Source of the DNA: Verrucomicrobiota bacterium
GTDB lineage: Bacteria > Verrucomicrobiota > Verrucomicrobiia > Limisphaerales > CANJSG01
Reading direction: 5' to 3'
NCBI GenBank assembly: GCA_038209745.1
Contig: JBBQXJ010000036.1
Location: forward strand, 1 to 44,249
DNA length: 44,249 bases
Part shown: positions 4,747 through 44,249 of the stretch, in pieces
Position numbering within the stretch: position 1 is the stretch's first letter
Layout: each line of letters starts with the position of its first letter
Translations under genes and position numbers: made by a program
The notes under the pieces: model-generated
The model's database searches: none
Seen by the model: the letters and a program-made list of their open reading frames with translations, nothing else
Told to the model about the DNA's origin: nothing

Positions 4747-4932
4747 GGGTTGCCGGCGATCAGACCAGCGATCGAAGGCGAAAGGCAAAAGCGAACTGTC
4801 TTTGATTCCGGTCCTTCGCCCGGGCAATTGGTCTTCCCGAATCGAGAGCGGTTGTTACCGTCGGCTCCTCAATCTCCCAGTTCCCGTCCCGGGAAGGTCG
4901 GGCGGCAGCGATCCTTCGAAACAGCAAATGCC

Positions 4933-15194: not shown

Positions 15195-16123
15195 TAAGAA
15201 TTTGCCGCCAGTTGTTTGATGCGAGCGCGGAAGGTTTTCATTATTTCGGCAAGCCACGGGCTGGCAAACCGTTTGCGAACGGTGAGAGCGTAGTATTTTT
15301 CCGTCAGCCCCGGAACGCGCCGCATGAACTTGATGTTGCGCGACTGCAGTTCGCGTTCGACGACGATCTTCGAGACGAGCGCGAGACCTTCGCCGGAGAG
15401 CGCGAGCAGCCGGAGCAGCGCCATGTCGTCCACTTCGGCGTGAACGAACGGCTCGATGCCCGCGCTCGCCAGAATCAAATCAAAGTCCGCCCGCACATCG
15501 CTCTGGCGGCTGGGCAGGAAGAGCGGAACCCCTTTCAAGAACTGCGGAAATTTCCCGGGCGACAACTTCAGATTTTTTCCGCCGACGAGAAACACCGGCA
15601 CCTCTCCGAGCAGATGATTGAAAACGTTGTGCTCCTGATCGGCGCGCAGCGGGATGTTGGACAATATCAAATCCACCCTGTGTTCGTGCAACTGCCGCGT
15701 GAGTTCGTCCAGCGCGCCCGCGACGACGACGACCTTGGTCTGCGCGTCGGCCAGAATCGGCTGGATGAAATCGAACTGTAGATTCTTCGAGAGCGGCCCG
15801 ACCGCACCGATCCGCACTATCCTCTGCCGCGTCGCGCCGAACTGCCGGAAGTGGGTGATGAGTTCGTGGCCGGTGGTGAAAATTGTCTCCGCGTGCTCCA
15901 GCGCGACGCGGCCGCCGTCGGTCAAATGCAACTGCCGTCCGCGCCGCTCGAACAGCGGCTGGCCGAGCCACTCCTCCAGTTCGGCCAGTTGCTCGCTCAA
16001 GGTGGACTGCGAAATCTTCAGCTTCTCCGCCGCGCGCGTCACGCTGCGATGCCGCGCAATCATCCAGAAATGGCGCAGGTGGTGGTAGTTCAACCATTCG
16101 GGGTTTTCAAAAGCCGAATTCAT
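15194..16123 (-). CDS. LysR-family transcriptional regulator (NhaR-like), divergent from dabBA
   Basis: WLNYHHLRHFW, SVTRAAEKLKISQSTLSEQ HTH, LFERRGRQLHLT. Confidence 0.93.
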   Translation of the reverse strand: MNSAFENPEWLNYHHLRHFWMIARHRSVTRAAEKLKISQSTLSEQLAELEEWLGQPLFERRGRQLHLTDGGRVALEHAETIFTTGHELITHFRQFGATRQRIVRIGAVGPLSKNLQFDFIQPILADAQTKVVVVAGALDELTRQLHEHRVDLILSNIPLRADQEHNVFNHLLGEVPVFLVGGKNLKLSPGKFPQFLKGVPLFLPSRQSDVRADFDLILASAGIEPFVHAEVDDMALLRLLALSGEGLALVSKIVVERELQSRNIKFMRRVPGLTEKYYALTVRKRFASPWLAEIMKTFRARIKQLAANS

Positions 16124-17834: not shown

Positions 17835-20356
17835 ACGCAATCCTCGAACCCGTTGCCGTGGAAATGAACCCGTCGCTCCAGCAGGTCGTCGCCTCGGCCT
17901 GCAAACGCATCCCGCCGCTCTGGTCGCTGAAGAATTTCGTGGCGGTGAATCCGTTTGTCGGCCTGAGCGGGCGCCATTTCATCGACGCGGCCAACCTGAT
18001 TCGAAAAGTCGGCCACGGCGACATGCTCATGCCAACGGACTGGTATCGGGAGCAGATCGCCTCCGGGCGGATCCAGGATCAAGACCTTGCGGCCGCCGTC
18101 GAACTGGCGCACCGGACCTTGCCGTCCGGGAACGCCGCGCGCATCAAATTCGCCGATCTGGCCGAATTGAACGACGCGCTGGCGGAGCCAACTCCGACCG
18201 ACGCGACGGAGCGAATTCTGACGTTCGCCGATTTTCTTGATGTGGAGCTCGAAAGCGGTTGGGCGGGGTTCGTGGTGGAGGAGATTTCCAAGTGGTGTTC
18301 GGCCTACTACGACCAGGGCCAGTCGTCCTGGCGGATGCCGTGGCGCGACCGGGAACTGTTTGGCGCCTGGAAGGCGGCGGCGCAACTCGATGCCAACCCC
18401 GAACTCAACGGCCTGAAAAACTTTCGCCAGTTCGTTGCGGAACTGCCGGATGACCCCGCGGAACTGATCGCCCGGGCGCTGGACGCGTTGGGCGTGCCGG
18501 AACCGCTGCGGGAGGATTTTCTTCACCGGCAACTGATGAGCATCTCGGGCTGGAGCAGCTACGCGCAGTTTCTCGTGCGCGAAAAGGGCATGGCCGGACA
18601 AACGGACGACTCGTTGGCGCAACTGCTGGCCATCCGGCTGGCCTATGATCTCGCGCTGCTGAAACAGTTCGGCGACGAACCGACCAGAAGCCAGAGCTGG
18701 GTGAGGCAATTGGCGGCGCTGAAACAAGAGGAGGGCGACTTGCCGTCCGATCTGTTGGCGCGCTATGTCGCCCAGCAGGCGGTGGAATACGGCTATCAGC
18801 GGAAGCTTGCTGCCATGCTGAGATCGAAAGCCGACCGGCCGACAAACATGCCGGGGCAAAAACGGTTGCAGGCGATCTTCTGCATTGATGTCCGGTCGGA
18901 AGTGTTCCGCAGGTCGCTGGAGGCGCAGTCGGAAGCGATTGAGACGATCGGCTTCGCCGGGTTTTTCGGCATGACGATCGAGTATCTCCGCTTCGGCCAG
19001 TCGAAGGGCGCCGCGTGCTGCCCGGTGTTGCTCACGCCCAGGATCAAGGTGCGCGAATCGGTGCGGCATGGCTCGACCGCTGCCGAGGCAAAGCTTTTGC
19101 GGAGGTTGAATTTCCAACAGTCCGTGGCGGGCGCGTGGAATTCGTTCAAGACCTCGGCCATTTCCTGCTTCGCGTTTGTCGAGACCGCCGGGCTGTGGTC
19201 CGGCCTGCGGCTGGCGAAGGATTCGCTCGCCCTGGCCGGACCGGAATCCGCCTTTGCGGCGAGCGGCGGAAGACACGTGCTCGGCCCGCAGATTGAACGC
19301 GAAGTCCGTTGCCGCGACGAGCACGGGCACGATTTGGAAACCGGAATCCTCCTGGTGGACCAGATCGCGCTCGCCGCCGGGGCTTTGAAGAACATGGGGC
19401 TGACGGCGAATTTCGCGCGGATCGTGCTCGTTTGCGGCCACGGCAGCGCCACGACGAACAACCCCTACGGCTCGGCGCTCGACTGTGGTGCGTGCGGTGG
19501 TCATGCGGGCGACGCGAATGCGCGGGTCGCCGCCGCGATTCTGAACAAGCCGGACGTGCGCGACGGATTGAAGCAGCAAGGAATCTTGATCCCCGCCGAA
19601 ACCCGTTTTGTGGCCGGTCTGCACAACACGACCACGGATGAAGTGTTGCTCTACGATGTGGAGTCCGGTCCGACCAGTCAGTTGGCGGAATTGGGACAGA
19701 TCAGAACCTGGTTGTCCGCCGCCTCAAAAAAATCCCGGCGCGAACGGGCAGCCTCACTCGGTCTGGCGGAAGTGAAGGAAGCAGACCTGGACGAAACCGT
19801 TTTCAAGCGCAGCCGGGATTGGGCGCAAGTGAGACCGGAGTGGGGTCTGGCGGGCAACGCCGCCTTCATCGCCGCGCCCCGCGAACGCACGAAAGGTTTG
19901 AACATGGGCGGCAGAACCTTTCTCCACAACTACGACGCGACGCAGGACACGGACAAATCGGTTCTCACCCTCATCATGGTTGCGCCGATGGTCGTGGCCA
20001 GTTGGATCAACCTGCAATACTACGGCTCGACCGTGAACAACCGGCTCTTCGGCAGCGGCAACAAGACGATTCACAACGTGCTCGGCACGTTCGGTGTGTG
20101 GCAGGGCAACGGCGGCGATCTGCAGCCGGGGCTGCCGCTGCAATCCGTCCACGACGGCACCAAATGGCGGCACGAACCGATGCGGCTGAACGTGTTCATC
20201 GAAGCGCCGCGCGAAGCCATCGAGAGCGTGATCGCAAACCAGCCCGGTGTGCGGGAATTGATCCAAAACGGCTGGGTGAACCTGTTTGCGCTGGGTGAGC
20301 CGGGCAAGGGCTCCTGGAGATACTGTGGCGATCGATTTGAGGAAGAACCGGCCTGA
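17831..20356 (+). CDS. dabA: Inorganic carbon transporter subunit DabA/MpsB (DUF2309, beta-carbonic-anhydrase-like)
   Basis: PPLWSLKNFVAVNPF, FCIDVRSE, CGHGS, LDCGACGG (Cys/Asp/His/Cys Zn ligands), VRPEWGLA; ATG 17831 overlaps the dabB TGA (ATGA); 841 aa. Confidence 0.93.
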   Translation: MNAILEPVAVEMNPSLQQVVASACKRIPPLWSLKNFVAVNPFVGLSGRHFIDAANLIRKVGHGDMLMPTDWYREQIASGRIQDQDLAAAVELAHRTLPSGNAARIKFADLAELNDALAEPTPTDATERILTFADFLDVELESGWAGFVVEEISKWCSAYYDQGQSSWRMPWRDRELFGAWKAAAQLDANPELNGLKNFRQFVAELPDDPAELIARALDALGVPEPLREDFLHRQLMSISGWSSYAQFLVREKGMAGQTDDSLAQLLAIRLAYDLALLKQFGDEPTRSQSWVRQLAALKQEEGDLPSDLLARYVAQQAVEYGYQRKLAAMLRSKADRPTNMPGQKRLQAIFCIDVRSEVFRRSLEAQSEAIETIGFAGFFGMTIEYLRFGQSKGAACCPVLLTPRIKVRESVRHGSTAAEAKLLRRLNFQQSVAGAWNSFKTSAISCFAFVETAGLWSGLRLAKDSLALAGPESAFAASGGRHVLGPQIEREVRCRDEHGHDLETGILLVDQIALAAGALKNMGLTANFARIVLVCGHGSATTNNPYGSALDCGACGGHAGDANARVAAAILNKPDVRDGLKQQGILIPAETRFVAGLHNTTTDEVLLYDVESGPTSQLAELGQIRTWLSAASKKSRRERAASLGLAEVKEADLDETVFKRSRDWAQVRPEWGLAGNAAFIAAPRERTKGLNMGGRTFLHNYDATQDTDKSVLTLIMVAPMVVASWINLQYYGSTVNNRLFGSGNKTIHNVLGTFGVWQGNGGDLQPGLPLQSVHDGTKWRHEPMRLNVFIEAPREAIESVIANQPGVRELIQNGWVNLFALGEPGKGSWRYCGDRFEEEPA

Positions 20357-20489: not shown

Positions 20490-21476
<987 letters not shown>

Positions 21477-21557
21477 GGCGCGACGCTGTCGGACGGGATT
21501 CGTCGGTGCAAGTTCGGTCGCCGCTTCAAAGGCGCTTCTTAGTCGGAACCATTCCTT

Positions 21558-21726
21558 GGAACAGGAGATGGCGGAGAGGGCGGAGAGAGCGGAGCGGGAA
21601 ACAAAAGCGATCCGTGGATCATTCCGGGGACGAAGCGCGGCCACCCTTGGGTGAAGGCCGATCCGGCCATCCGAACGTCTCGCCTTCACGTCCTTTTTTC
21701 CTGCGGCCTCCGCTCGCTCCTGTTCC
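21558..21726. repeat. Inverted array of degenerate 9-mers (hairpin element)
   Basis: GGAACAGGAGATG-GCGGAGAGG-GCGGAGAGA-GCGGAG pairs with CTGCGGCCTCCGCTCGCTCCTGTTCC (21701-21726); inner GTGAAGGC/GCCTTCAC stem. Confidence 0.7.
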
Positions 21727-32479: not shown

Positions 32480-34153
32480 TTAATGGCCCTCTTTAAGTTC
32501 CGCAGTTCCGCTGCCGTCCGTGGGCCGGGCCAGAATCATCCGGGACACCACCGGCGCTTGTGGACCGACGTGGAAGGCGAAGACCCGGTCGCGGATGGCG
32601 TGGTCGGCGACGGTGAACCGTTCGACCTGGCGCTGGCGGTCGAGCCATGATTCCACGACGTAGGTCTCCACATACCGTGCCGGATCGAACGGATCATGGT
32701 ACAAGGCCCAACGCACGGCTCCGTCGCGACGTCGGACCCGGCCCAGTTCGTGGGCCGCTTCGACGAATTCCGTTCCGCGCGGGGGATCGATCCGGAAGGT
32801 CACCGAGATCAGCACCGGGCCGGCTTCAGGATTGGGTTCGATTATCACCTGCGGGGCCGCGCGGCCGAGCGAGCTGGCCAGTCGCGCCGGCGAATGGTCC
32901 TGATCGGCGAAGGCCATCAGCGGAAAGCGCCGCGCGATGGGCAGACCGAGGATCAGCCCTGCGGCCGCCGCGCTGAAGGCGATGTGCGTGTTGCTGTGTT
33001 CCGCGACCGCGCCCCAGACCGCGCTGCCGAGGGCCATGCCGCCTTGAAACACCATCTGATAGATCCCCAGCGACCGCGCCTGCACCCACGCCGGCACCGA
33101 CAACTGCACCGCGATGTTCAGGCAGGAAGTCGTGGTCGTCCACGCGACGCCACCCACGAAGAGCGCGACGATGATCGGGCCCAACCGGTGCCACCACCCC
33201 ACCACCAGCAACACCGAGGCAAAGACCACGCCGCTGGCGGTCACGATGGTGTCGGCGGACCAACGGCGACGAAAATACGGCAAGGCCAGCGCCCCCGTGA
33301 CCGCGCCCGCGCCGATGCAGCCGTTGAGGATGCCGTAGCCCATCGCGCCGTTTTTCAGGTTTTCACGGGCCACCACCGCGAGCAGCGCCCACATGCTGCT
33401 CACGCAGAAGGTTTGCAGGAAGGCCCGCACGAGGATCGACCGGAGCGCCGGGGCGAACCGCGTGTATCTCAGTCCGGCCCGCATGGAACCGACGAGCCGC
33501 TCTGCCGGCAGGGCACTGGTGAAGAGCGGTGTTCGTTTCCAGCGGAAGACCACCACCACGACAGCCACGAACGAAAGGGCGTTGATCAGGAAGACCACGC
33601 CGGCACCCAGCATGACCGAGGCGAACGCCGCCACGATCAAACCACCGGCGGCTGGTCCGACCGCCCGGGCGATGTTGAACGCGGCGCTGTTCAGCGAGAT
33701 GGCTTCCGGCAGTTCCTTGCGCGGCACCAGCTCCGGCACAATGGCCTGCCACGTCGGGCCGTTCATCGCCGATCCCGCGCTCAGCAGGAAGGTCAGCAGA
33801 AGGAGCGAGCCCACCCCGATCCATCCGGAGAAGGTCAACAGGCTCAGGATGACGGCTGCGGCCAGCATCCATCCGGCCCAAAAGAGCAGCAGCCGTCTGC
33901 GATCCAGAATGTCCGCCGTGGCCCCGGCTGGCAGACCGAACAGGAGCACCGGCAGGCTCGCCGCCGTCTGCATGAGGGCGATGAGAAAGGGGGACGTCGT
34001 GAGCGTGGTCATCAACCACGTGCCGGCCGTGTCCTGCATCCAGCTGCCCGTGTTCGAGACGACCGAGGCGATCAGCCTGCTTCGAAACAGAGGGCGACGA
34101 AGGGGCGACCAGACGCTGGTCGCGGCACCGGATGGACTGGGATCGCTCTTCAA
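32480..34153 (-). CDS. MFS transporter (MFS_3/DUF894 type) with C-terminal soluble extension
   Basis: 12-TM pattern, [30 protein letters not shown]-terminal RRRDGAVRW domain. Confidence 0.9.
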
Positions 34154-34530
34154 CGGCGACCACGCTATCCGGGGTCATCTCGGGAGAATATCGAAATCAG
34201 ACTGCAAGGGCTCGCGCGGTCAAAGATTGCCAGCCGCCCCGGTCTTGGTTTCGTTTGGGCGGACCGAATGCCCGGCCGAGGAATCCGATCTCCAGAGCCG
34301 GGATACGCCCCTGCAATGAAGGGATTTGCCCCTCCTGTCGTGCTCCGCAGAGTGCAGAGATTCTGACTGGGAACTGAACGGGAGACGACTGATGCCAACT
34401 CGGCCCTAAAAGCCCGCGCTGCCTGCTGCCCGGATGGACTGGAAGTCGTAAATAGGTAAACTTACCCAATAGAGCGCTCTTTCTACAAGGTGGACACTTT
34501 CGACGAGAATTGTCCGTTCTTGGGACGGAT

Positions 34531-34560
34531 TTGACAGTTTTTAATATCATTTGTCTTAAT
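34531..34560 (+). promoter_or_regulatory. Possible promoter of the secretion operon in an AT-rich spacer
   Basis: TTGACA at 34531 with a weak TG-n-CTTAAT at 34552-34560; the spacer is visibly AT-richer than the flanking genes. Confidence 0.3.
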
Positions 34561-34711
34561 GTCCTGATACCTCGTTTCAACCGGTTTGCAACAGACCTTT
34601 GATTTGGGCGCAGCAAGTCCGGATTCACGCGCTGCAATGTGACGAAATCGTGCTTGAAGATTATCTGCTCGAGGTCTTTGAAGACAAAGGTCTCTTCTTC
34701 AACAAAATCCT

Positions 34712-36211
34712 ATGAAACCGTTTCCCGGACGATTGTGGACAGTGCTGTTGGCCGGTAGCCTTGGATGTGCATCAATTCTGGAAGCGGCCGATTCGCCGAC
34801 CGCGGCCGGCAAGGCGGAGATGACGGTCCCGCAGGTTCTCGAAGAGGTTCTTCGTTCCAATCTTCGCCTCAGATCGCAGGCTTTGGAGCAGAGCATCGCC
34901 AAGGACCAGCTTCGAGGCGAGTGGGCCATCTTCGAGCCCGACTTTGTGGCTGGTGTGACCGATGAGGCTAATACCCGGCAGAACACCCGGGAGAGGTTCC
35001 TGAGTCAGGCGACGACCCTGTTCGACGAAAAAAACCAGATCTACTCGGCCGGCTTCGAAGGGCTTCTTCCGACCGGTGGACGTCTGAAAATCAGCGGCCA
35101 GAACCGCCGCCTGAAGAACAATCTCCAATTGACCGGCCAACGGGAAAGCGAGTCGTTTTCGGCCGTAACCCTGACGCAACCTTTGTTGAAGGGGGCGGGC
35201 TGGGGCACGACCGCCGCGCAGATCAAGCTGGCCTCGGCCCAGTCACGGATCGTGCTGCAGGAATACCGGCGGCAACTGATGCTCGTCCTGTCGCAGTCTG
35301 AATTGGCCTACTGGGACCTGGTCGCGGCTCGCGATCTGGCCGGCCTCCGTGCCTCCTCGGCCGACATGGCCAAGCGGGTTCTGACCGACAACAAGGCGCG
35401 GGTGGAAGCCGGGAAGATGACGGAGATCGAGGTCCTCCAGGCTGAATCCGGCGTGGCCGTGCGGGGGGCTGGCGTGACCGACGCGAAGCAACGGGTCGAG
35501 TCCGCTCTTTCCCAGTTGAACTCGTTCTTCGGGCGGACAACGGGCGACGCGGTCGTGCCGGCCGAGAAGCTGGATCCGAAGCCCATCGTGCAGGATCGTT
35601 CCGGGGCGTTGGAGCTGGCCTTTCGCAACCATCCAATTTACGTAAGCCAGTTGGAGAAATCCCGGCAGGACGACATCCGGCTTTCCTATGCCAAGAACCA
35701 GCGCTGGCCCCAGTTGGACCTGAAGGCCAGCTATGGTTTGAACGGGCTCGGAAGCGTGTGGGACGATTCCTGGTCGTTTGTCGGCTCAAGCGACTTTCCT
35801 TCGTGGTATGTCGGCTTCGAGCTGCGCATTCCATTGACCGGAGGTCAAAAGGCCCGCAGCCAGACCTCGGTGGCCCGCAGCCGCAGGGAACAGGGTCTGC
35901 TGGAGATCAAGGCCATCGAGGTCGAGCTGATCAACTCCGTCGCCTCCATCTTGACGAAGGTCTCGACGGCCGAGGAAAAGGCCAAGAGCTTCCAGGGCGT
36001 CGTGGCCCTCAACCAACGACTGTTGGACACCGAACTGAGCCGGCTCGACGGCGGCAAGAGCGACTCGCGAAAAGTTCTCCAGGCGGAGCAGGACCTGGCG
36101 GACGCCCGTGTGTCCGAACTGGAGGCCCGGCTCGATTGGAAGCGGGCCGAGGTCGAACTTCTGGTCCAGACGGGAACTTATCTGGATCAGCACGGCTTCG
36201 AGCTACACTGA
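34712..36211 (+). CDS. TolC-family outer membrane channel
   Basis: Signal peptide, two OEP-like halves (LTQPLLKG, AYWDL, KNQRWPQLDL, ELRIPL). Confidence 0.9.
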   Translation: MKPFPGRLWTVLLAGSLGCASILEAADSPTAAGKAEMTVPQVLEEVLRSNLRLRSQALEQSIAKDQLRGEWAIFEPDFVAGVTDEANTRQNTRERFLSQATTLFDEKNQIYSAGFEGLLPTGGRLKISGQNRRLKNNLQLTGQRESESFSAVTLTQPLLKGAGWGTTAAQIKLASAQSRIVLQEYRRQLMLVLSQSELAYWDLVAARDLAGLRASSADMAKRVLTDNKARVEAGKMTEIEVLQAESGVAVRGAGVTDAKQRVESALSQLNSFFGRTTGDAVVPAEKLDPKPIVQDRSGALELAFRNHPIYVSQLEKSRQDDIRLSYAKNQRWPQLDLKASYGLNGLGSVWDDSWSFVGSSDFPSWYVGFELRIPLTGGQKARSQTSVARSRREQGLLEIKAIEVELINSVASILTKVSTAEEKAKSFQGVVALNQRLLDTELSRLDGGKSDSRKVLQAEQDLADARVSELEARLDWKRAEVELLVQTGTYLDQHGFELH

Positions 36212-36222
36212 CCACGCCGGCC

Positions 36223-37047
36223 ATGAAGCGTTTTCATTTTTCGGCCGCGTCGAACTTCCGGCTGACGACTGGACTTCTTCTGCTGGTCGCGATGGCTTGC
36301 GAAGCAGCCGAAGTGGCCGGCTTTCTTCAACCGGTCCGCGAGGAAGTGCTTAGTTCGGGCGTGTTGGGACGGGTAGCGGAGATCCATTTCAAGGACGGTG
36401 CCCAGGTCGAAGAAGGCGCCGTCATCCTCGAACTCGACAAGCGATCCGAGGAGATCGAGGCGGCCCGGCGCAAGATCGTCTGGGAAGCCAAGTCCGAGCT
36501 CGAGGCGGCCGTCGCGCGGCGCGACACGATCCAGCACGACTACGATTCTTCCAAGAAGCTCGCCGAAACCACCCGGTCCGTGAGCGGGGAAGAACTGGCG
36601 AAGAAGGCCCTCGAACTCCGGGTCGCGAACGCCGAGGTGGAGCAGGGGGAGAAACGCGAGGACATCGAGAAGCTTGAATACGAGTTCGCCGTCGAACAGG
36701 TCCGTCGGCGGGAGATCCGGGCGCCCCACGCCGGCCAGATCGTAGAAGTGTTGCCCAAAGTCGGCGAAGTCTGTGAGCCCCGGCAGCCGCTGGTGAGGTT
36801 GGTGGACGTTTCCCAGTGCCATTTCATCGCGAACCTGGACGCGGCCCAGAGCTTCCGGTTGAAGGTGGGCCAGAAGCTTCCGGTGGATGTGACCGCTTCC
36901 GGTGGAACCGTGAAGGTGGAAGGGGTGGTGGAATTCATTTCGCCGGTGATCGATGCGGCGAGCGGCCTGCGGCGGATCAAGCTCCTGATCGACAACCGGG
37001 ACGGCCGGCTCGTTCCGGGGGCCCCGGCGGTGCTCAACCTCGATTGA
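36223..37047 (+). CDS. Periplasmic adaptor / membrane fusion protein (HlyD/RND-MFP family)
   Basis: Lipoyl halves GRVAEIHFKDGAQV and IRAPHAGQI around a coiled hairpin; FISPVIDAASG; start ATG 36223. Confidence 0.87.
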   Translation: MKRFHFSAASNFRLTTGLLLLVAMACEAAEVAGFLQPVREEVLSSGVLGRVAEIHFKDGAQVEEGAVILELDKRSEEIEAARRKIVWEAKSELEAAVARRDTIQHDYDSSKKLAETTRSVSGEELAKKALELRVANAEVEQGEKREDIEKLEYEFAVEQVRRREIRAPHAGQIVEVLPKVGEVCEPRQPLVRLVDVSQCHFIANLDAAQSFRLKVGQKLPVDVTASGGTVKVEGVVEFISPVIDAASGLRRIKLLIDNRDGRLVPGAPAVLNLD

Positions 37048-37062
37048 ACAGCCTCCATCGCC

Positions 37063-38886
37063 ATGCTCGCGCCCGAAGAAGCCGCCTCCCCGACGCCGAC
37101 CGCGCTGCAGAAGCTGGCCAGATTCGACGGACCGTCTCGCGAATTCTGGCCCCTGTTTCTTGAAGCCTCGCTCACGTTGACCGGTGCGGCGCGGGCCTCG
37201 CTGCATCTCCGCAATCCGGCCTCCGGTTGGCAGCGGTTTGTCGTCCAATCCGACGCCGCCGCGCCGCGCAGCCGGGAATGGCCCTGGCCCGAGGCGGCCC
37301 TACTCGATTCAGCCGAAGCCCTTGGTTGGGCGGAGGAGTCTTCCCCCGCCGCTGGTTCTCCAGCGTTCGTTGGCTTTCGTGTTGCCGCCGGTGAGGACGG
37401 GAGCCACGCGGTGGTTGCGCTTGCCTTCGGAAAGGCGCCGTCCACCGCAACTTTTCGCCCGGCGCTCGGAGTCCTTTCCGAATGGCCCGCCCAGTATCTC
37501 GCCGTGCGGCGGGCCGCAGTGGTCCGTGAAGAAAATGCCCGGCTGGTCACCGCCCTTGATCTGGGTCTTCTGGTGCAACGCGAGGAGAGATTTCTCGCCG
37601 CCGGAATGGTGCTCTGCAACGAACTCGCGGCGGGCCTTCATTGCGACCGCGTCGCGTTGGGCTGGCTGACGGATGACCAGATCGTCCACCTGAAGGCAAT
37701 CAGCCAAGCGGAGAAGTTCGAGCGAAAGGCCGACATTGTCCGGCGGTTGGAACTGGCGATGGAAGAGGCGATCGACGAAGGGCGGGACGTCGTTTATCCG
37801 GCACCGGACGATCCCGCTCCGTTGCGGGACCACGCGGCCTATTCGCGGGAATCCGGCGCGGACTGCCTTTGCTCCCTGCCGTTGTGCGTCGGGGAACACG
37901 CGGTGGGCACGCTTTTGGCGGAACGACGTGAAAGCCCCTTCAAACCGGATGATGTGCGCCGGCTTAGACTGGCCTGCGACCAGGTGACGCGGCGTCTGGC
38001 GGTCCTGGAGGAGAAGGACCATTGGTTCGGCCGCAGAGTGGTCCGATGGATCCGGCGGGAGGCGGAAACGTTCCTCCTTCCGAAGCGCACGGGCCGGAAG
38101 CTGGCCGGTGCGGTCGGGGCGCTGGCCGTGCTGTTTCTTTTGTTTGGACGGCTGCCGTATCGTGTCGAGGCGCCGGTGGCCTTGCGAAGCGAACAAGTGG
38201 CGTTTGTGACCGCGCCATTCGACGGCTATGTGCAGGATGTGGCCGCGCAAGTGGGCGACGAGGTCGTCTCGAACTCCGTCCTCGTCCGTTTCGACACCCG
38301 CGAGCTGCTCCTCCAGCAGTCCAGCGCGCTGGCCAACGTGATCCGCCACCAGCAGGAAGCGGAGAAGGCCCGCGCCTCCGGGGATCTGGCCGAGATGCGG
38401 ATCGCCCAAGCGCAGGTCGACCAGGCGAAGGCTTCTTTGGAACAGACCGGCTACCATCTTGGCCGCGCCGAGATCCGCGCGCCGTTCGCATCCGTCGTCG
38501 TCGAGGGTGATCTCCGGAAAAAGATCGGTTCGCCGTTTCGGCAGGGCGAAGTGCTCTTCCAGGTCGCGCGGCTCGACGTCCTTTATGTGGAACTGGAGGT
38601 GGCCGAACGCGACGTGCATGAAATCCTCGACGCCAAGTCGGCCACCATCTCGTTGGCCAGTGCCCCCGGAAACTCCCTGTCCGTGGCCATCGAGCGGGTC
38701 CACCCCTCGGTGCAGTCCCGGCCGTCCGGCGGAGTCTTCCTCGTGCGCGCCCGTTTGCCAGCGGAAGCCGAGGGTTGGTTGCGGCCCGGCATGACCGGAG
38801 TGGGTCGGATCTCCGTCGGCTGGAGGAATCCGCTCTGGATCTGGACCCACCGGACCTTCGACTGGTTCCGGCTGCATCTCTTCTAA
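37063..38886 (+). CDS. GAF-like domain + TM + HlyD-family membrane fusion protein
   Basis: Cytoplasmic GAF-like region (CDRVALG...SLPL...VGTLLAER...F), one TM, then APFDGYV, IRAPFASVV and LRPGMTG MFP motifs. Confidence 0.82.
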   Translation: MLAPEEAASPTPTALQKLARFDGPSREFWPLFLEASLTLTGAARASLHLRNPASGWQRFVVQSDAAAPRSREWPWPEAALLDSAEALGWAEESSPAAGSPAFVGFRVAAGEDGSHAVVALAFGKAPSTATFRPALGVLSEWPAQYLAVRRAAVVREENARLVTALDLGLLVQREERFLAAGMVLCNELAAGLHCDRVALGWLTDDQIVHLKAISQAEKFERKADIVRRLELAMEEAIDEGRDVVYPAPDDPAPLRDHAAYSRESGADCLCSLPLCVGEHAVGTLLAERRESPFKPDDVRRLRLACDQVTRRLAVLEEKDHWFGRRVVRWIRREAETFLLPKRTGRKLAGAVGALAVLFLLFGRLPYRVEAPVALRSEQVAFVTAPFDGYVQDVAAQVGDEVVSNSVLVRFDTRELLLQQSSALANVIRHQQEAEKARASGDLAEMRIAQAQVDQAKASLEQTGYHLGRAEIRAPFASVVVEGDLRKKIGSPFRQGEVLFQVARLDVLYVELEVAERDVHEILDAKSATISLASAPGNSLSVAIERVHPSVQSRPSGGVFLVRARLPAEAEGWLRPGMTGVGRISVGWRNPLWIWTHRTFDWFRLHLF

Positions 38887-38901
38887 GTCGGCCGTTCGGT
38901 C

Positions 38902-41025
38902 ATGAACACCTTCTCCGAATCCTGGCATCGCGTGCGCGGAGTGACCGTCCGGCTGCGCCCGCAAGTGCAGGCGCATCGGCAGCGGTTCCGGGGCGAGCTC
39001 TGGTTCGTCGTCCGCGAACCTTTCAACAACCAGTTCTTCAGACTTCGGGCCTCCGCCTACGCGTTCGTGCAGCGGCTCGACGGGGCCCGGACGGTCCAGG
39101 AAGCCTGGGAGGAGACGATGGCGGACGATCCCGAAGAGGCGCCCGGACAGCAGGACGTGATCGAGCTCCTGGCCCGGCTCTATGCGGCCAACCTCATCTT
39201 CACCGACCTGCCGGCGGACACCGCCGCCCTCTTCCAGCAACACCGCCGTCGCCACCATCGTGAGACCGTCGCGAAGTGGGTGGGAGCGATGTTCGCCCGC
39301 TTCCCCTTGTGGGATCCGGACGATTTTCTGCGCCGCGTTCTGCCGGTGGTCGGACCTCTCTTCAGCCGGTTCGGGGCGATTGTCTGGGCGGTCGTGGTGC
39401 TGGCGGGTTTGAAGGGTGTGATCGAGAACCGGGACGCCCTGTTCGCCGAGGCGGGACGGGCGTTGACCCCGGAGAACCTGCTCTGGCTCTACCTGGCGAC
39501 GGTCGGCATCAAGCTGCTCCACGAATTCGGCCACGCCATCCTCTGCCGGAAGTTCGGCGGCGAAGTCCATACCTTCGGCGTCATGCTCATGGTCTTCACC
39601 CCGATGCCCTATGTGGACGCGACCTCGGCGTGGTCGTTCCGGGAATGCTGGCAGCGCGTGATCGTCGGGGCAGGGGGGATGATCGTCGAAGTCTTCATCG
39701 CCGGATGGGCGGCCCTTTTCTGGGCGGCCAGCGGTCCGGGCCTCCTGCACGCGCTGGCCTTCAACGTGATGTTTTCGGCGTCGGTCTCGACGCTGCTCTT
39801 CAACCTCAATCCGCTCCTCCGGTTCGACGGCTACTACATGCTGATGGACTGGCTGCGTTTGCCCAATCTTGCCCAGCGCAGTCTCGGTCTGATCCGCTAT
39901 CTGGCGGAAAAACACTTCTTCGGACTGAAGCGGGAGAAGCCTCCGGCCCATCATGCCCGGGAAACCCCGTGGCTGATCGGCTACGGCGTGGCCTCCTTCT
40001 TCTATCGGATCGCGCTCTCGCTCTCGATCATCCTCTTCGTGGCGACGCGGTTTCCGGTGATCGGAGTTTTACTGGCCGGGGTTTGCCTCGTGGGCTGGGT
40101 GGTCGTGCCGGTTGGCCGGTTCGTGGGTTATCTCGCCACCAGCCCTCGATTGGCCAGGGTGAGGCCGCGTGCCTGGGGAGTCACCCTGGGCGGGACGGCG
40201 GTTCTGGTCATGGTGCTGGGCGTGGTTCCCATGCCCTCCAATTTGCGCGCTCCGGGCGTGGTCCAAGCGGAGCAATACACCCTGGTCGCGACGGCCAATC
40301 CCGGCTTCGTGGAAAAGGTTCTGGCGCCCTCCGGGAACGAGGTGAAGGCGGGCCAGCCGCTGCTCCAGTTGGCCGACCCGGAACTGGTGTTCGAAGTCCA
40401 TGAAGCCAAGGCCCAGCTCGGCGAAGCGGTCGCGCGGCAGCGGCAGGCGATTTCGCACGGAGGACAGAACCAACGCTCGATCGACAGTGCGCTGGAAGCA
40501 TTGCGTCTCCGTGAGGAGGACCTTCGCCGCCGGGAAGGGGAGCTGACGATCAAGGCCGCGCATGACGGCCTTTGGGTCGCGCCGAGGGCGGGAGACTTTG
40601 TCGGCCGCTGGTTTCCGCGCGGAACCGTGCTGGGCGAAGTGGTGAACCCGAGGAAGTTCACCTTCATCGCGCGCATCCCGACCCGGGATGGTCTGCAATT
40701 GATTTCCGGCGGTTTGCGCGGAGCCCGGGTGCGGCTCCTCGGCCAACCGGCGAAGCCGATGGAAGCGGCGAATATGCGCATCATCCAGGCCACCGCCGAG
40801 ACGGACGAAAGCGCCGGTGGCCGAAATGGAGCGGACCGGGAAAAGACTCCACCGGTTCCGACCTTCGAGCTCCGGTCGAATCTTGTGCCCGGGAGCGACC
40901 CTCCGAAGCTGCTGAACGGCCAAACCGGAGTCGTTCGCCTCTCGATTCCCTGGGAACCACTCCTCCAACAGTGGAGCCGTCGGGTCCGGCAACTGTTCCA
41001 GAAAACCCCCGGTGGCTCCTTGTGA
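38902..41025 (+). CDS. PqqD-like domain + M50 (site-2) zinc peptidase + HlyD-like adaptor fusion
   Basis: HEFGH (HExxH) and NLNPLLRFDG (NPxxxxDG) within the TM region; N-terminal RLDGARTVQE...LARLYAANLI; C-terminal lipoyl/coiled-coil. Confidence 0.85.
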   Translation: MNTFSESWHRVRGVTVRLRPQVQAHRQRFRGELWFVVREPFNNQFFRLRASAYAFVQRLDGARTVQEAWEETMADDPEEAPGQQDVIELLARLYAANLIFTDLPADTAALFQQHRRRHHRETVAKWVGAMFARFPLWDPDDFLRRVLPVVGPLFSRFGAIVWAVVVLAGLKGVIENRDALFAEAGRALTPENLLWLYLATVGIKLLHEFGHAILCRKFGGEVHTFGVMLMVFTPMPYVDATSAWSFRECWQRVIVGAGGMIVEVFIAGWAALFWAASGPGLLHALAFNVMFSASVSTLLFNLNPLLRFDGYYMLMDWLRLPNLAQRSLGLIRYLAEKHFFGLKREKPPAHHARETPWLIGYGVASFFYRIALSLSIILFVATRFPVIGVLLAGVCLVGWVVVPVGRFVGYLATSPRLARVRPRAWGVTLGGTAVLVMVLGVVPMPSNLRAPGVVQAEQYTLVATANPGFVEKVLAPSGNEVKAGQPLLQLADPELVFEVHEAKAQLGEAVARQRQAISHGGQNQRSIDSALEALRLREEDLRRREGELTIKAAHDGLWVAPRAGDFVGRWFPRGTVLGEVVNPRKFTFIARIPTRDGLQLISGGLRGARVRLLGQPAKPMEAANMRIIQATAETDESAGGRNGADREKTPPVPTFELRSNLVPGSDPPKLLNGQTGVVRLSIPWEPLLQQWSRRVRQLFQKTPGGSL

Positions 41026-43001
41026 ACACCGTTCTCCAGGACTCAACTTCGGTATCCGGCAATGCCGCGCCGCTGCCCAAGGGATTCGACGCGTTGAACC
41101 ACTTCGTCCACGGGCTCCACGCCCGTCGCCCCTCCAGGATGGCTGCGCTCCGGGCCACGGCGGATGCTGCTCTCTCCCAAGAAAGGGCTTTCAAGACCCT
41201 CGGGGACGAAGCGCTCCGGAGCCGTCTCGCTTCCGTTGGCGAACGGTTCCGGCGTCGAGCTGCGGCGTCGGATGCGGGGCTGTTGGCTGAAGCGTTGGCC
41301 GCTCTGCGCGAGGCGGCTTCCCGGGTCTGCGGGCTGCGCCCGTTTCCGGTCCAGCTCATTGGGGCGGCGGCTCTGCACCGGGGCTGTCTGGCCGAAATGG
41401 CGACCGGCGAAGGCAAAACGCTGGTCGCGGCGATGGCCGCGGTTTTGGCCGGTTGGACCCGTCGTCCCTGCCATGTCGTGACCGTGAACGACTACTTGGC
41501 AGCCCGCGACGCCAAGTGGTTCGAATCGTTGTTCCAGGTGGCCGGACTGTCGGTCGGAGTCGTGACCGGAGGAATGGACGTTGGCGAGCGGCGAGCCGGG
41601 CACCGGGCCGACGTCACCTTCACCACCAGCAAGGAGCTGCTGGCGGATTTTCTACGGGATCGGATCGCGCTGGGGCCGTTGACGGATGCGGATCGGCTGC
41701 GACTGCACCAAGGCGGCTGCCTCCGGAAGGACGCCGCCGGCTCCATCGTGATGCGGGGTCTCGGTGTGGCCATCGTGGACGAGGCGGACAGCATCCTGAT
41801 CGACGAAGCCGTGACGCCCTTGATCATTTCGCGGGAGCGGGAAAACGCCGATCTCCGCGATGCCTGCGTCGAAGCCCGTGAGCTGGGGGAATCGCTGCAA
41901 GCCGGACTCGACTACGAGGTGAACCCGCGCTTTCGCGACGTGGAACTGACCCCGGCCGGGCGAAAGCGGTTGGCCAGCGAGGCGGGAAACCTTCCTCCGC
42001 TGTGGAGGGGAACCGATCGGCGGCAGGAACTGGTCACCCAGGCGCTTCACGCCAGGGAGTTCCATCTCAAAGACCAGCAGTATGTCGTCCACGAGGGCAA
42101 GGTGGTCATCGTGGACGAATACACTGGCCGGATGATGCCGCAGCGGACTTGGCGGGACGGTCTGCACCAGGCCATCGAGGCCCGGGAAGGTCTGGAGATC
42201 ACCAGCCCCAGCGAGACTTTGGCCCGGATGAGCTTCCAGCGGTTTTTCCGGATGTTCCCGCGACTGAGCGGGATGACCGGGACCGCCTGGGAAGCCCGGC
42301 ACGAACTGTGGCGGGTCTACGGCTTGGCGGTGGTCCGAATTCCGACGAACCAACCGGTGCGACGGGAGCTGCTGCCGGATCGTTTTTTTGACTCCGCCGA
42401 GGAGAAATGGAGGGCCGTCACGGCCGAAATCGAGTGTCTCAATGCCAGCGGCCGACCGGTGCTGGTCGGTCTCCGCAGCATCGACGCGAGCGAGGAGTTG
42501 TCCCGGAGATTGGGAACGGTCCATTTACCTCATCGCCTCCTGAACGCTACCCGCCACCAGGAAGAGGCCGCCATCGTCTCGGATGCTGGGCGGCTCTGCA
42601 CCGTGACACTCGCCACCAACATGGCCGGACGCGGCACGGACATCCGTTTGGAGCAAGGAGTCGCCGAACTCGGAGGGTTGGCGGTGATAGCGACAGAACG
42701 GCACGAATCGCCCCGGATCGACCGTCAGCTTTTCGGTCGCAGCGGGCGACAGGGCGACCCCGGCACCGCCCAGGCGTTCGTCAGTTGGGAGGACGAAATC
42801 TTCCGCCGATTCCTCCCTTCGCCGGTGAGGTCGGGCCTTCGAAGAACGGCATCGAAGGCGGCGAGAACGGCCCAAGAAACCGCCGTGCTTTTGGCTCAAC
42901 GTCGGGCCCAAAACCAAGCTGCCGTCCAGAGACGTTTGGTGCTGAGATCGGACGAGTGGATCGACGAGTCCCTTGGGTTCGCCGGTGCTGGCCAAGTCTA
43001 G
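41022..43001 (+). CDS. SecA-like ATPase paralogue, C-terminally truncated (659 aa)
   Basis: EMATGEGKT, VTVNDYLAARD, VDEADSILIDEA, GLHQAIEAREG, GMTGTA, ATNMAGRGTDI, RIDRQLFGRSGRQGDPG; GTG 41022 overlaps the upstream TGA. Confidence 0.9.
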   Translation: MNTVLQDSTSVSGNAAPLPKGFDALNHFVHGLHARRPSRMAALRATADAALSQERAFKTLGDEALRSRLASVGERFRRRAAASDAGLLAEALAALREAASRVCGLRPFPVQLIGAAALHRGCLAEMATGEGKTLVAAMAAVLAGWTRRPCHVVTVNDYLAARDAKWFESLFQVAGLSVGVVTGGMDVGERRAGHRADVTFTTSKELLADFLRDRIALGPLTDADRLRLHQGGCLRKDAAGSIVMRGLGVAIVDEADSILIDEAVTPLIISRERENADLRDACVEARELGESLQAGLDYEVNPRFRDVELTPAGRKRLASEAGNLPPLWRGTDRRQELVTQALHAREFHLKDQQYVVHEGKVVIVDEYTGRMMPQRTWRDGLHQAIEAREGLEITSPSETLARMSFQRFFRMFPRLSGMTGTAWEARHELWRVYGLAVVRIPTNQPVRRELLPDRFFDSAEEKWRAVTAEIECLNASGRPVLVGLRSIDASEELSRRLGTVHLPHRLLNATRHQEEAAIVSDAGRLCTVTLATNMAGRGTDIRLEQGVAELGGLAVIATERHESPRIDRQLFGRSGRQGDPGTAQAFVSWEDEIFRRFLPSPVRSGLRRTASKAARTAQETAVLLAQRRAQNQAAVQRRLVLRSDEWIDESLGFAGAGQV

Positions 43002-43121
43002 AAGTCAGGCAGGAGATGATCCATTTGATAACAATAAAATCCGCGCTTCCGAGAAGATTGGAATTGATTGTCCCGAAATTGCGGCGCATTCGTCTCAGCA
43101 AGTCCCAACTCCCGTTGATCC

Positions 43122-44249
43122 GTGATCGGCAACCGTTACGAACTTGAACCGCTCGAAGCCCGGCTGATGCTGTCGGCCGATGTCGCCGGTTTGGCGGGTG
43201 GTGCTCTCGGAGCCGGTCAGGGCGCTCAGGCAGTTTTACGGGAGACCATGCACGAACCTTCTCCCGCTTCGACCAGTGGGAATTCGCTGTTCGACGGCCT
43301 GCAACCCTTGGAAGACGCGGGTCCAGCGGGGACCAAACCGGCGCACGTGGACACCCCGGCGACGCTCCCCACGACACCGGCCAAAGTTGCGGCCGACCTC
43401 GCGGAAAAGGTTCTCCAAACCAAGAGCGATGCAGCCACGGTCGTGTCGAAACTGACGGGACCCATGTCCCCGGCTTCGGACCCCGCTCTCTCCACCGCGT
43501 CCGCAGAGGTGCCTTCGTCCGTTTCCCTTTCCGTCGAAACCCTGACGGCCGCGAACGGGCCTCCCGTCGGCGGAACCAATTCCGCAACAGTTTTGAATCG
43601 CTCTGTTCCCCGCCGTCAGACTGATGGCGTTACAAACATTTCCGGAGCGATTTCCGCCGATATGACGTGGTCTGGAACCATTTATCTAAACGGCGACGCC
43701 CAGATCAATTCCGGCATCACGGTCATCATCCAGCCGGGCACGGTCATAAAGATAAAGCAGGGGGTCTCTCTCACCGTTTCGGGAACGCTTCAGGCCAACG
43801 GCACCACCACCGCTCCGGTCATCTTCACTTCGGCCCGCGATGCCAGCGTAGGTCTGCCGGTTCCGGGTGCTCCTACAGGAGATGCGGTGGCGGGCGACTG
43901 GCAATCGATCTACTTCGAGAGCGGTTCCAGCGCGTCGGTCTTCGGCAACGTCATCGTGCGTTATGCCGGTAACGCGTCGAGCCCCGGCAACCCGTCGTAT
44001 TATCGCTCGGCGGTCCGGTTGAACAACACGGCGGCGACACTGACGGACGTGCTGGTGTCGCAGTCCGACTCGGACGGGATCGAGATCGTGGGTGGGACAC
44101 CGAGTCTGACGCGGGTCACGGTGGACGGTTCGCGGTTCAGCGGGTTCTCGGAAACCACCCTGGCTCTGCCGACTCTTCGGAACCTGACGGCAACGAACAA
44201 CGGGTCGGGCAACGGCTACGTGTTCGTCGGCGGAACCTTGGCGGCGGAC
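43122..44249 (+). CDS. Large LEPRxLL-leader exoprotein with beta-helix region (partial, runs off window)
   Basis: Translated by hand: 376 open codons from GTG 43122 to the edge. YELEPLEARLMLSAD, an Ala/Pro/Ser/Thr linker, then IQPGTVIK, PVIFTSARD, GDWQSIYF beta-helix-type sequence. Start codon uncertain. Confidence 0.88.
   Translation, partial: MIGNRYELEPLEARLMLSADVAGLAGGALGAGQGAQAVLRETMHEPSPASTSGNSLFDGLQPLEDAGPAGTKPAHVDTPATLPTTPAKVAADLAEKVLQTKSDAATVVSKLTGPMSPASDPALSTASAEVPSSVSLSVETLTAANGPPVGGTNSATVLNRSVPRRQTDGVTNISGAISADMTWSGTIYLNGDAQINSGITVIIQPGTVIKIKQGVSLTVSGTLQANGTTTAPVIFTSARDASVGLPVPGAPTGDAVAGDWQSIYFESGSSASVFGNVIVRYAGNASSPGNPSYYRSAVRLNNTAATLTDVLVSQSDSDGIEIVGGTPSLTRVTVDGSRFSGFSETTLALPTLRNLTATNNGSGNGYVFVGGTLAAD

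Follow-up and report, generated by a model that had tools for sequence, protein, structure and literature searches.

The window analysed here is a stretch of 44,249 nucleotides from a Verrucomicrobiota bacterium (assembly GCA_038209745.1; 4.58 Mb in 140 contigs, 92% complete) and comprises one entire contig, JBBQXJ010000036.1, numbered C36 in our set. Towards its 3' end lie five tightly packed genes on the forward strand, hereafter the cassette, and behind them the beginning of a very large gene whose product starts with a LEPR-XLL leader. We consider here what this cassette does and how it is tied to that product, hereafter the cargo. The features are as follows.

34712-36211, + strand: TolC-like gene, 499 residues, matching Pfam OEP; the first of the five cassette genes
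36223-37047, + strand: small HlyD adaptor, 274 residues; 11-bp gap after the TolC-like gene
37063-38886, + strand: GAF-HlyD, 607 residues; 15-bp gap after the small HlyD adaptor
38902-41025, + strand: M50-HlyD, 707 residues; 15-bp gap after GAF-HlyD
41022-43001, + strand: SecA-like, 659 residues, with a GTG start; 4-bp overlap (GTGA) with M50-HlyD
41397-41420, + strand: Walker A of the SecA-like protein, an ATPase motif
43002-43121, no strand: spacer of 120 bp between the SecA-like gene and the cargo gene
43122-44249, + strand: 5' end of the LEPR-XLL cargo open reading frame (ORF), with a GTG start at 43122 and a frame that is still open at the contig end
43287-43298, + strand: loose L-F-D-G motif of the cargo, residues 56-59

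An earlier, sequence-only reading of this DNA had given the same genes and spacings (gaps of 11-15 bp, one overlap of 4 bp and a spacer of 120 bp), which proved exact on re-reading, and each of the domain names that it used was confirmed by Pfam and NCBIfam searches. The spacer at 43002-43121 contains no promoter-like or terminator-like site, as judged from a scan of 34100-44249 that ran at chance level throughout (one promoter-like site where 0.6 would be expected, and 11 terminator-like sites where 9.9 would be). An ATG-initiated ORF of 43 codons in another frame (43016-43147) spans the spacer and overlaps the cargo start, and may be there by chance.

The cassette has the HlyD-type adaptor and the TolC-type outer-membrane factor that classical type I secretion systems require. 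Its TolC-like protein matches Pfam OEP over two stretches (108.7 bits) and TIGR01844 at 100.5 bits, under that model's cut-off of 225, and all three adaptors have HlyD_D23/HlyD_3 matches in Pfam. The small adaptor, which also exceeds the cut-off of TIGR01730 (115.6 bits against 94.9), has a single N-terminal hydrophobic segment in the hydropathy profile (residues 14-32) that may be an anchor or a signal. GAF-HlyD joins a Pfam GAF domain (39.3 bits, residues 184-310) to HlyD_D23 (72.4 bits) and HlyD_3 (52.2 bits), and hydropathy combined with these domains indicates a cytoplasmic part of 345 residues, one transmembrane helix (residues 347-365) and a periplasmic HlyD part. The GAF-HlyD, M50-HlyD and SecA-like proteins each score under every NCBIfam cut-off and merit annotation models of their own.

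M50-HlyD is a composite of three parts, which we delimited with the help of an AlphaFold2 model built from a 53-row alignment (predicted local distance difference test score, pLDDT, 87.5).

38902-39216, + strand: RRE (PqqD-like) domain, residues 1-105 of M50-HlyD; of a predicted leader-recognition type
39319-40224, + strand: seven-helix membrane domain with a site-2-protease-type active site, from hidden Markov model matches, AlphaFold2 helices and hydropathy
39520-39534, + strand: HExxH, residues 207-211 of M50-HlyD
39802-39831, + strand: NxxPxxxxDG, residues 301-310 of M50-HlyD
40228-41025, + strand: periplasmic adaptor (membrane fusion protein) domain of M50-HlyD, from Foldseek and HlyD_D23, with an alpha-hairpin at residues 493-546

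The protease and adaptor parts had been recognized from the start, and both stand; the N-terminal domain had been missed, although nothing else in the cassette points so specifically to recognition of a leader. Residues 1-105 score 22.5 bits against Pfam PqqD, just under the cut-off of 23.4, and are modelled as three strands and three helices (pLDDT 85.7 when folded alone). In structural alignments with VIA-align, the domain matches the leader-bound B1 protein of a lasso-peptide system (6jx3_B; Z 9.3, root-mean-square deviation 2.8, 83/85 aligned), TbiB1 (5v1u_A; Z 9.2) and PqqD (5sxy; Z 8.4), and the list holds many further RRE-bearing enzymes of ribosomally synthesized and post-translationally modified peptides (RiPPs). 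We assign the RRE fold because of these Z-scores and the kind of proteins that fill the match list. A complex prediction for this domain with the first 40 cargo residues scored 0.40, against 0.00 for the best of three controls, with a contact agreement between runs of at least 54% and a partner pLDDT of at least 44. In calibration on 157 solved complexes and 215 mismatched pairs, 116 of the former and 2 of the latter reached the mark, and scores of 0.60 or less included only 18 of the 157 solved complexes together with both passing mismatches.

Among NCBIfam models, the membrane part matches best to NF041824, the intramembrane HExxH metalloprotease of daptide biosynthesis (179.4 bits, cut-off 300); it also scores under the cut-offs of Peptidase_M50 (23.3 bits against 27.2) and of NF058609, the YydH/LiaK epipeptide protease (26.6 bits against 225). 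Six residues of the two catalytic motifs, H207, E208, H211, N301, P304 and D309, are invariant in 53 sequences. In the model and in the hydropathy profile, a linker helix after residue 105 leads into about seven membrane helices; the model sets HExxH at the end of membrane helix 2 and NxxPxxxxDG directly after membrane helix 4. With the N terminus inside and the adaptor outside, as this topology suggests, both catalytic motifs would lie at the cytoplasmic face. From residue 443 onwards, the best Foldseek matches are MexA, AcrA, MacA and EmrA, with E-values down to 4.2e-13 (HlyD_D23, 25.1 bits), and a Foldseek search with the whole model returned adaptor proteins alone.

The SecA-like protein has Pfam matches to SecA_DEAD (304.7 bits), SecA_PP_bind (87.9 bits) and P-loop_SecA (183.1 bits), and lies under all NCBIfam cut-offs for SecA and SecA2 (for example, 578.8 against 814 and 573.7 against 800). 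It had been described as a SecA paralogue; the homology holds, but alignment to Bacillus subtilis SecA reveals not a plain paralogue but a truncated form without the SecY-facing parts. The alignment runs from residue 33 to residue 588/594 of a 778-844-residue chain and covers NBD1, the preprotein cross-linking domain (PPXD), NBD2 and the start of the scaffold helix, whereas the wing domain, the two-helix finger and the C-terminal tail, beyond residue ~590 of B. subtilis SecA, are missing. In solved complexes of SecA, it is these three parts that face SecY. No variation occurs in the Walker A, DEAD and arginine-finger motifs among 31 orthologues, and the same 31 orthologues, across phyla, keep a C-terminal motif (42900-43001 in the window) that consists of R and then D-x-W-L-D-x-x-L-x-F-x-G. 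In place of the missing C-terminal domains of SecA, this tail motif may serve as a docking element for membrane partners. A second, longer SecA match in the genome, on contig C22, is the canonical SecA, 39-44% identical to the SecA-like protein.

The N terminus of the cargo matches NF012209 (LEPR-XLL) at residues 8-27 (43143-43202) with 22 bits, above the cut-off of 17, and with 25.3 bits in a search of the genome, in which this cassette-adjacent gene is the single match. The cargo had been called a large exoprotein without a classical hydrophobic signal peptide, and a 19-residue hydropathy scan indeed finds no hydrophobic segment in its first 376 residues. When the window's motif is aligned with 39 other N termini, L11, E12 and R14 of the leader are invariant; all 40 have in common a short basic or polar start followed by F-x-[LIV]-E-x-L-E-P-R-x-L-L-S-A-(D/T), and none has a hydrophobic core. 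Many LEPR-XLL giants (L108-L146) also carry a loose (D/S)-L-F-(D/E)-G about 40-60 residues after the LEPR-XLL motif, to which the L-F-D-G of the cargo corresponds, and which, from its sequence and position, could be a second recognition element or a cleavage site.

Within the window, the leader is followed by beta-helix-like sequence. In the same assembly, contig C43 opens with a copy of the window's final 141 bases, an end found on no other contig; when C36 and C43 are joined, the frame is open for 12,555 residues, up to a stop 354 bases before the end of C43 (G000:C43:1-36678). The C43 part contains CARDB, Big_5, beta-helix, He_PIG, Big_9, cadherin-like and dockerin domains in Pfam, together with 22 matched RHS-repeat stretches that total 665 bits. 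If C36 and C43 join, the RHS shell thus sits within an adhesin-like giant, amid Ig-like, cadherin-like, CARDB and dockerin domains. Cysteine accounts for 0.02% of 12,226 residues, with none in the first 376, against a crude background of 0.91% in long ORFs of the genome. HemolysinCabind, the RTX repeat, is absent among the Pfam matches (E <= 0.001) of the 12,226 C43 residues, the join being presumed and non-RTX C-terminal signals being unrecognisable from sequence. Provided that C36 and C43 join, the cargo in this genome is probably one giant, nearly cysteine-free protein of adhesin/RHS type.

The cassette is conserved as a unit, with a patchy distribution. A full-length orthologue of M50-HlyD (E <= 1e-180) occurs in 13 of 40 relatives, yet in only one of six genomes of the same genus, and the distribution is therefore patchy. 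As the sequence-only reading had anticipated, synteny holds: the five genes stand in identical order in 13 of 13 related loci, two of which are cut inside the SecA-like gene by contig ends. A wider search, with one representative genome per species, found at least 598 stretches that encode a relative of M50-HlyD. Among the best 80 of these distant loci, a SecA-like gene lies 3' of M50-HlyD in 70, with six of the ten misses at contig ends; GAF-HlyD lies upstream of M50-HlyD in 69, being absent from three Fibrobacter loci; and a TolC-like match is present in 23. The record labels of the core include Verrucomicrobiota, Planctomycetota/Phycisphaerae, Fibrobacter, Desulfobacterota, Alpha-, Beta- and Gammaproteobacteria, Nitrospira, Polarisedimenticolia, Rokuibacteriota, Methylomirabilia, Spirochaetota and others, of which single labels of metagenome-assembled genomes may be wrong. 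We also scanned nine ORFs just 3' of the SecA-like gene in seven non-verrucomicrobial loci, labelled Gamma- and Betaproteobacteria, Desulfomicrobium, Nitrospira, Phycisphaerales and Spirochaetota. Four of the nine encode a small HlyD adaptor (L098, L069, L097 and L086, the last with an OEP gene next to it), and those at L075, L061 and L078 encode no HlyD or OEP protein.

The cassette also tracks LEPR-XLL giants. In an even sample of 401 Verrucomicrobiota genomes, in which the cassette was called from M50-HlyD (E <= 1e-160) and the leader tag from NF012209 (E <= 0.01), 30 genomes have the cassette and 37 the tag: 28 have both, two the cassette only, nine the tag only and 362 neither. The co-occurrence that the sequence-only reading had proposed to look for is thus there, with the tag in 28 of 30 cassette genomes against 9 of the 371 others. 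In 18 of the 28 genomes with both, the two lie on one contig, and SecA-like orthologues (E <= 1e-130) are found in 29 of the 401 genomes, all of them within the 30 with a cassette. Seven of the nine tag-only genomes have weak matches (E > 0.001, in frames of 38-354 residues); G276 has a partial match at E 9.6e-4 and no M50-HlyD at E <= 1e-60, and G442 turns out to have a divergent full cassette, with a 37%-identical SecA-like protein, directly after a tagged ORF of 4,660 residues. Among 41 close genomes, 12 combine cassette and NF012209, two have the cassette only (G024 and G033), two the tag only (G011 and, weakly, G022) and 25 neither.

Far from the Verrucomicrobiota, the association persists. 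A LEPR-XLL ORF of 6,258-15,301 codons ends just upstream of the core trio in five of five distant genomes (Burkholderiales, Mesorhizobium, Fibrobacter, Desulfomicrobium and G044), or in four of four without the unpublished G044, and the leader starts an ORF at most 10 kb from the trio in one Nitrospira and one gammaproteobacterial locus. A Mesorhizobium isolate has a cassette copy beside a LEPR-XLL gene of 8,696 residues. This patchy pattern across phyla, as seen in sequence comparisons, argues for a functional tie between cassette and giants. Tagged ORFs commonly run to 4,000-19,000 codons. Two relatives of the present genome have open LEPR-XLL frames of 27,799 and 28,355 codons (G034:C30 and G036:C30; L132 and L133), very large for bacterial proteins if real and uninterrupted. 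In one relative, G008, all that stands directly 3' of the SecA-like gene is a 98-codon frame (L019:10261-10560; G008:C157, ~25883) with a weak partial leader match of 19.7 bits. It resembles what a cargo gene might leave behind when lost, and the tagged giants that this genome retains intact are encoded on different contigs. A stop-free frame of at least 1,000 residues was tried as a proxy for a giant neighbour and rejected: such frames occur at 44 of 93 loci, but also in 87 of 162 random 20-kb tiles of the present, GC-rich genome.

The usual partners of such genes are missing nearby. An ABC ATPase probe has 62 matches in this genome, yet it finds a match in just 7 of 93 loci (1.44 Mb), at scattered positions, and a SecY probe and two RND probes find none in the same 93, so that no conserved ABC transporter appears there as a dedicated inner-membrane component. 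The genome has one SecY and 16 RND matches, none of the latter on C36 or C43, and no SecY2 was found in it or, with the SecY probe, at the 93 loci. The sole ABC ATPase in the window lies 13 kb upstream of the cassette on the other strand. The sequence-only reading had noted that the visible operon holds none of these partners, and had named a conserved ABC, RND or SecY2 gene just beyond the window as grounds for refutation; within these probes, no such gene appears. One locus of the Chthoniobacteraceae, which has the adaptors and M50-HlyD and no SecA-like match, has an ABC ATPase about 2.5 kb 3' of M50-HlyD (L055:14627-15316) that shares 64% identity with the unrelated ABC gene of the window (20493-21689).

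The neighbourhood itself is in print. The sequence-only reading had supposed that similar neighbourhoods might have been noticed and knew of no mechanistic characterisation; the first supposition was right, and the second needs amending in that the published account already contains the same mechanistic guess, whereas we, too, found no experimental study. Kamneva, Poudel and Ward (2015, PLoS One, PMC4452313) described computationally a conserved 'secondary SecA_DEAD' locus that combines a secondary SecA_DEAD protein, Peptidase_M50/HlyD, GAF/HlyD, a small HlyD/biotin-lipoyl protein and sometimes OEP, with no ABC transporter and in the same phyla as the cassette. They proposed the SecA_DEAD protein as the ATPase and the M50 protein as the pore, called for experiments and listed Methylobacterium extorquens AM1 as a carrier of a copy. 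The present genome likewise has a SecA_DEAD protein besides its canonical SecA on C22, adjacent to M50/HlyD, GAF/HlyD, small HlyD and OEP genes. The main text of that paper names no substrate and does not contain the terms LEPR, giant or PqqD; as far as that text goes, it also reports no RRE domain and gives no account of what the SecA-like protein has lost. Unlike the locus that it describes, ours is complete with TolC and lies directly upstream of its probable cargo. Ours is thus an unusually complete case of a published, purely computational kind, and what seems to have no published precedent is the strong tie to LEPR-XLL giants in genome comparisons, together with the RRE-like domain as leader reader, the precise extent to which the motor is cut short and the lack of cysteine in the cargo.

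Two preprints, cited for the parts that concern us, bear on giants of this kind. West-Roberts et al. (2023, bioRxiv 10.1101/2023.11.21.568195) describe SecA_DEAD and preprotein-binding domains without scaffold and wing inside giant proteins of Omnitrophota and actinobacteria. The likeness lies in a wingless SecA module tied to giant-protein export; the difference is that the module there forms part of the giant, whereas here it is a separate protein of 659 residues in an operon with adaptors, protease and TolC. The other (10.64898/2026.03.19.712371) reports LEPRxLL N termini on two giant Chlorochromatium proteins of 36,806 and 20,647 residues linked to symbiosis, and places a 'recently acquired' secA (Cag_1676), a candidate member of the SecA-like family described here, within the co-expression cluster of the giants. 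It also notes a sapC gene beside them. A SapC-family gene (PF07277, 242.7 bits) lies between M50-HlyD and the SecA-like gene in a Mesorhizobium locus (L088:12325-13170); neither PF07277 (SapC) nor PF11950 (DUF3467) was found in the window's genome, which is 92% complete. In the literature that we searched, no paper links the cassette to LEPR-XLL proteins or studies it experimentally, and none describes an export route for LEPR-XLL giants.

Because of the LEPR-XLL tie, the RRE-like domain, the truncation of the motor and the cysteine-free cargo, a one-step, leader-guided exporter powered by a SecA paralogue is the best explanation of the cassette. We consider it likely that the cassette is a dedicated, ABC-independent, envelope-spanning machine for the one-step export and maturation of LEPR-XLL proteins. 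In keeping with the sequence-only reading, we infer that the M50 membrane domain is the inner-membrane conduit, the SecA-like protein the motor and the leader the targeting signal, and of these the inner-membrane conduit is the weakest link. In our judgement, the chances are evenly balanced that the cassette represents a separate class of double-membrane secretion system, in which the RRE would read the N-terminal LEPR-XLL leader and the wingless SecA paralogue would drive the chain, N terminus first, via the M50-adaptor conduit and two further adaptors into TolC, and by which many of the largest proteins known from bacteria, of 6,000 to >28,000 residues, would generally be exported in ten or more phylum-level groups. 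The detailed export mechanism is more tentative, a proposal to which we give slightly less than an even chance.

In that mechanism, the cargo, which by its sequence carries neither a Sec nor a Tat signal, is synthesized in the cytoplasm, and its leader, a basic stretch and then F-x-[LIV]-E-x-L-E-P-R-x-L-L-S-A-D, would be caught by the cytoplasmic RRE-like domain, as the fold and a weak complex prediction suggest. By homology, the shortened SecA motor, with its ATPase core and preprotein clamp and none of the SecY-facing parts, would then feed the unfolded chain N terminus first at the expense of ATP. How the inner membrane would be crossed is a matter of speculation; the chain might pass through an assembly in which the M50 domain, with its seven helices, is combined with the other adaptors' anchors. 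The M50 active site, modelled at the cytoplasmic ends of helices, would remove the leader. Beyond the membrane, the three adaptor types would form a periplasmic duct onto the TolC-like channel, and the cargo would never fold in the periplasm; we propose this duct because of the homology to tripartite systems and the near-absence of cysteine. The cytoplasmic GAF domain may, again speculatively, gate or regulate the machine.

Several points weigh against this proposal. First, there is no sign that any M50 domain forms a protein-conducting pore, the literature that we found holds no experiment on any cassette member, and an ABC transporter encoded elsewhere is possible in a genome with 62 ABC ATPase matches. 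The published re-analysis of one data set found the Methylobacterium extorquens copy to be mostly silent (PMC4452313). Second, no tag was found in the cassette genomes G214 and G326, nor in the close relatives G024 and G033, although all four are fragmented assemblies (270-710 contigs, 87-95% complete; for G024 and G033, 600-710 contigs and 87-89%); the co-occurrence counts, moreover, ignore shared ancestry and rely on NF012209, a model of 24 positions. Third, the size of 12,555 residues depends on the presumed C36-C43 join via an overlap of 141 bases. Fourth, unrelated winged-helix proteins match the RRE-like domain equally well (8hkr_B, Z 9.9), a Foldseek search of the PDB with the domain model gave nothing at E <= 0.001 (best E 0.009), and the predicted RRE-leader complex is weak. 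Finally, four loci (L046, L055, L064 and L072) have room for a SecA-like gene yet no match, and a paralogous M50-HlyD cassette (L152-L154; a small HlyD, a second HlyD and an RRE/M50/HlyD protein) has no SecA-like gene nearby. One genome with this SecA-less cassette, G378 (C1, L155-L158), has four proteins of 3,100-4,900 residues that start M-A-I-Y-E-L-E-P-R-V-L-F-D-G, a variant of the leader at the very N terminus. The SecA-less cassette and these G378 proteins caution that the motor may be dispensable, an accessory to the machine and no part of its core.

The alternative that survives best, though we regard it as unlikely, is an ordinary type I system with its ABC transporter gene at some other place in the genome, in which the SecA-like protein would be a cytoplasmic chaperone or unfoldase for the giant and the M50 domain a leader peptidase. 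TolC and HlyD-type adaptors are classical parts of such systems, TolC is often unlinked in them so that scattered parts would not be unusual, and the genome has many ABC ATPases (62 matches). Known type I systems for RTX proteins and giant adhesins, HlyB-HlyD-TolC and LapB-LapC-LapE, resemble the cassette in their TolC-type duct, in HlyD-type adaptors with cytoplasmic extensions and in a very large, cysteine-poor, repetitive cargo that is probably exported unfolded in one step. The Chlorochromatium preprint proposes a SapC/TolC/HlyD type I system that exports the LEPRxLL giants C terminus first (10.64898/2026.03.19.712371). However, an ABC ATPase is present in just 7 of the 93 loci and at no conserved position, whereas the SecA-like gene is adjacent in 70 of the best 80 loci and present in 29 of the 30 cassette genomes. 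The cassette further differs from type I systems in having no ABC transporter and a SecA paralogue as candidate motor, in its three adaptors instead of one, and in a targeting motif that is N-terminal where type I signals are C-terminal; no RTX repeats were detected on C43, whose 12,226 residues have no HemolysinCabind among their Pfam matches.

We give a still smaller chance to a RiPP-type system, in which the RRE-M50 protein would trim the leader of a small peptide, adaptors and TolC would expel that peptide, and the adjacent giant gene would be a coincidence. The best NCBIfam match of the M50 part is, after all, the daptide protease (NF041824, 179 bits), followed more weakly by the YydH/LiaK epipeptide protease, and an RRE fold such as that of the N-terminal domain is typical of RiPP enzymes. 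Both matches nonetheless fall under their cut-offs (300 and 225 bits), a short peptide needs no SecA-type polypeptide motor, and the cassette tracks LEPR-XLL giants across phyla. The 24 larger upstream ORFs of the window, moreover, have no RiPP modification enzyme among their Pfam matches, although no search was aimed at a small precursor gene. What the cassette does share with peptidase-containing ABC transporters and with RRE-bearing RiPP leader peptidases is that leader recognition and cleavage are built into a membrane export component; its nearest relatives in structure and sequence are proteins with the RRE fold and the intramembrane proteases of HExxH type (daptide NF041824 and YydH/LiaK NF058609). 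In those systems, however, the substrates are short peptides and here thousands of residues long, the protease here is fused to a periplasmic adaptor, and the scores lie under the family cut-offs.

About equally improbable, and marginally the less likely of these two, is a two-step route in which the SecA-like protein would hand the giant to the housekeeping SecYEG, the M50 domain would replace signal peptidase, and adaptors and TolC would complete export from the periplasm, as MacAB-TolC does with some peptides. The SecA-like protein is genuinely homologous to SecA and keeps both its ATPase core and its preprotein cross-linking domain intact, and the genome does have one SecY. Yet nothing of the wing, two-helix finger and C-terminal tail is present beyond ~590 of B. 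subtilis SecA, a hydrophobic core is lacking in the leader, a SecY-like gene occurs at none of the 93 loci, and the near-absence of cysteine fits a protein that never folds in the periplasm. The accessory SecA2 of Gram-positives and mycobacteria, acting alone or as SecA2-SecY2, offers a parallel in that a second SecA serves a few unusual, often very large substrates. SecA2, however, keeps the scaffold, wing and finger and works with SecYEG or SecY2, whereas the SecA-like protein lacks those regions, scores under all SecA2 cut-offs and is accompanied by no SecY2.

Sensing is the usual role of GAF domains and signalling that of M50 proteases, and HlyD/TolC sets are often small-molecule pumps, which counts for a reading without any protein export, as regulated intramembrane proteolysis or small-molecule efflux with a GAF sensor, an M50 site-2 protease and an efflux route of adaptors and TolC. 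Although Kamneva et al. also considered a regulatory role for GAF (PMC4452313), we hold this reading to be very improbable, as neither a sigma/anti-sigma pair nor an RND, MFS or ABC pump is a conserved companion of the cassette, the upstream MFS_3 gene is divergent and not seen as a conserved neighbour, and the SecA-like protein, the RRE domain and the LEPR-XLL tie would be left unexplained.

If LEPR-XLL giants do leave the cell by way of the cassette, their secretion would follow a new logic of motor and channel, and SecA would have a second independent use outside the Sec translocon. This would also explain the near-absence of cysteine in LEPR-XLL giants, and it would speak to cases such as the Chlorochromatium giants, whose export route is, in the preprint's own account, still guessed at (10.64898/2026.03.19.712371). 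The reading is directly testable in the copies of Methylobacterium extorquens AM1 and of the Mesorhizobium isolate.

The remainder of the window holds neighbours without apparent relation to the cassette. Directly upstream of tolC lies the divergent MFS_3 transporter gene (32483-34153, - strand), which was not seen as a conserved cassette neighbour. Further upstream are a lone, unrelated ABC ATPase (20493-21689, - strand), a DabA-containing protein of 1,260 residues (16574-20353, + strand) with a divergent LysR regulator (15197-16123, - strand), and two more unrelated genes, a squalene-hopene cyclase (11856-13841, - strand) and a DUF7133/cytochrome c/GDSL protein (1402-4827, - strand). The DNA is contained in 20 sequencing runs, all of DNA and all labelled as sediment or soil metagenome.

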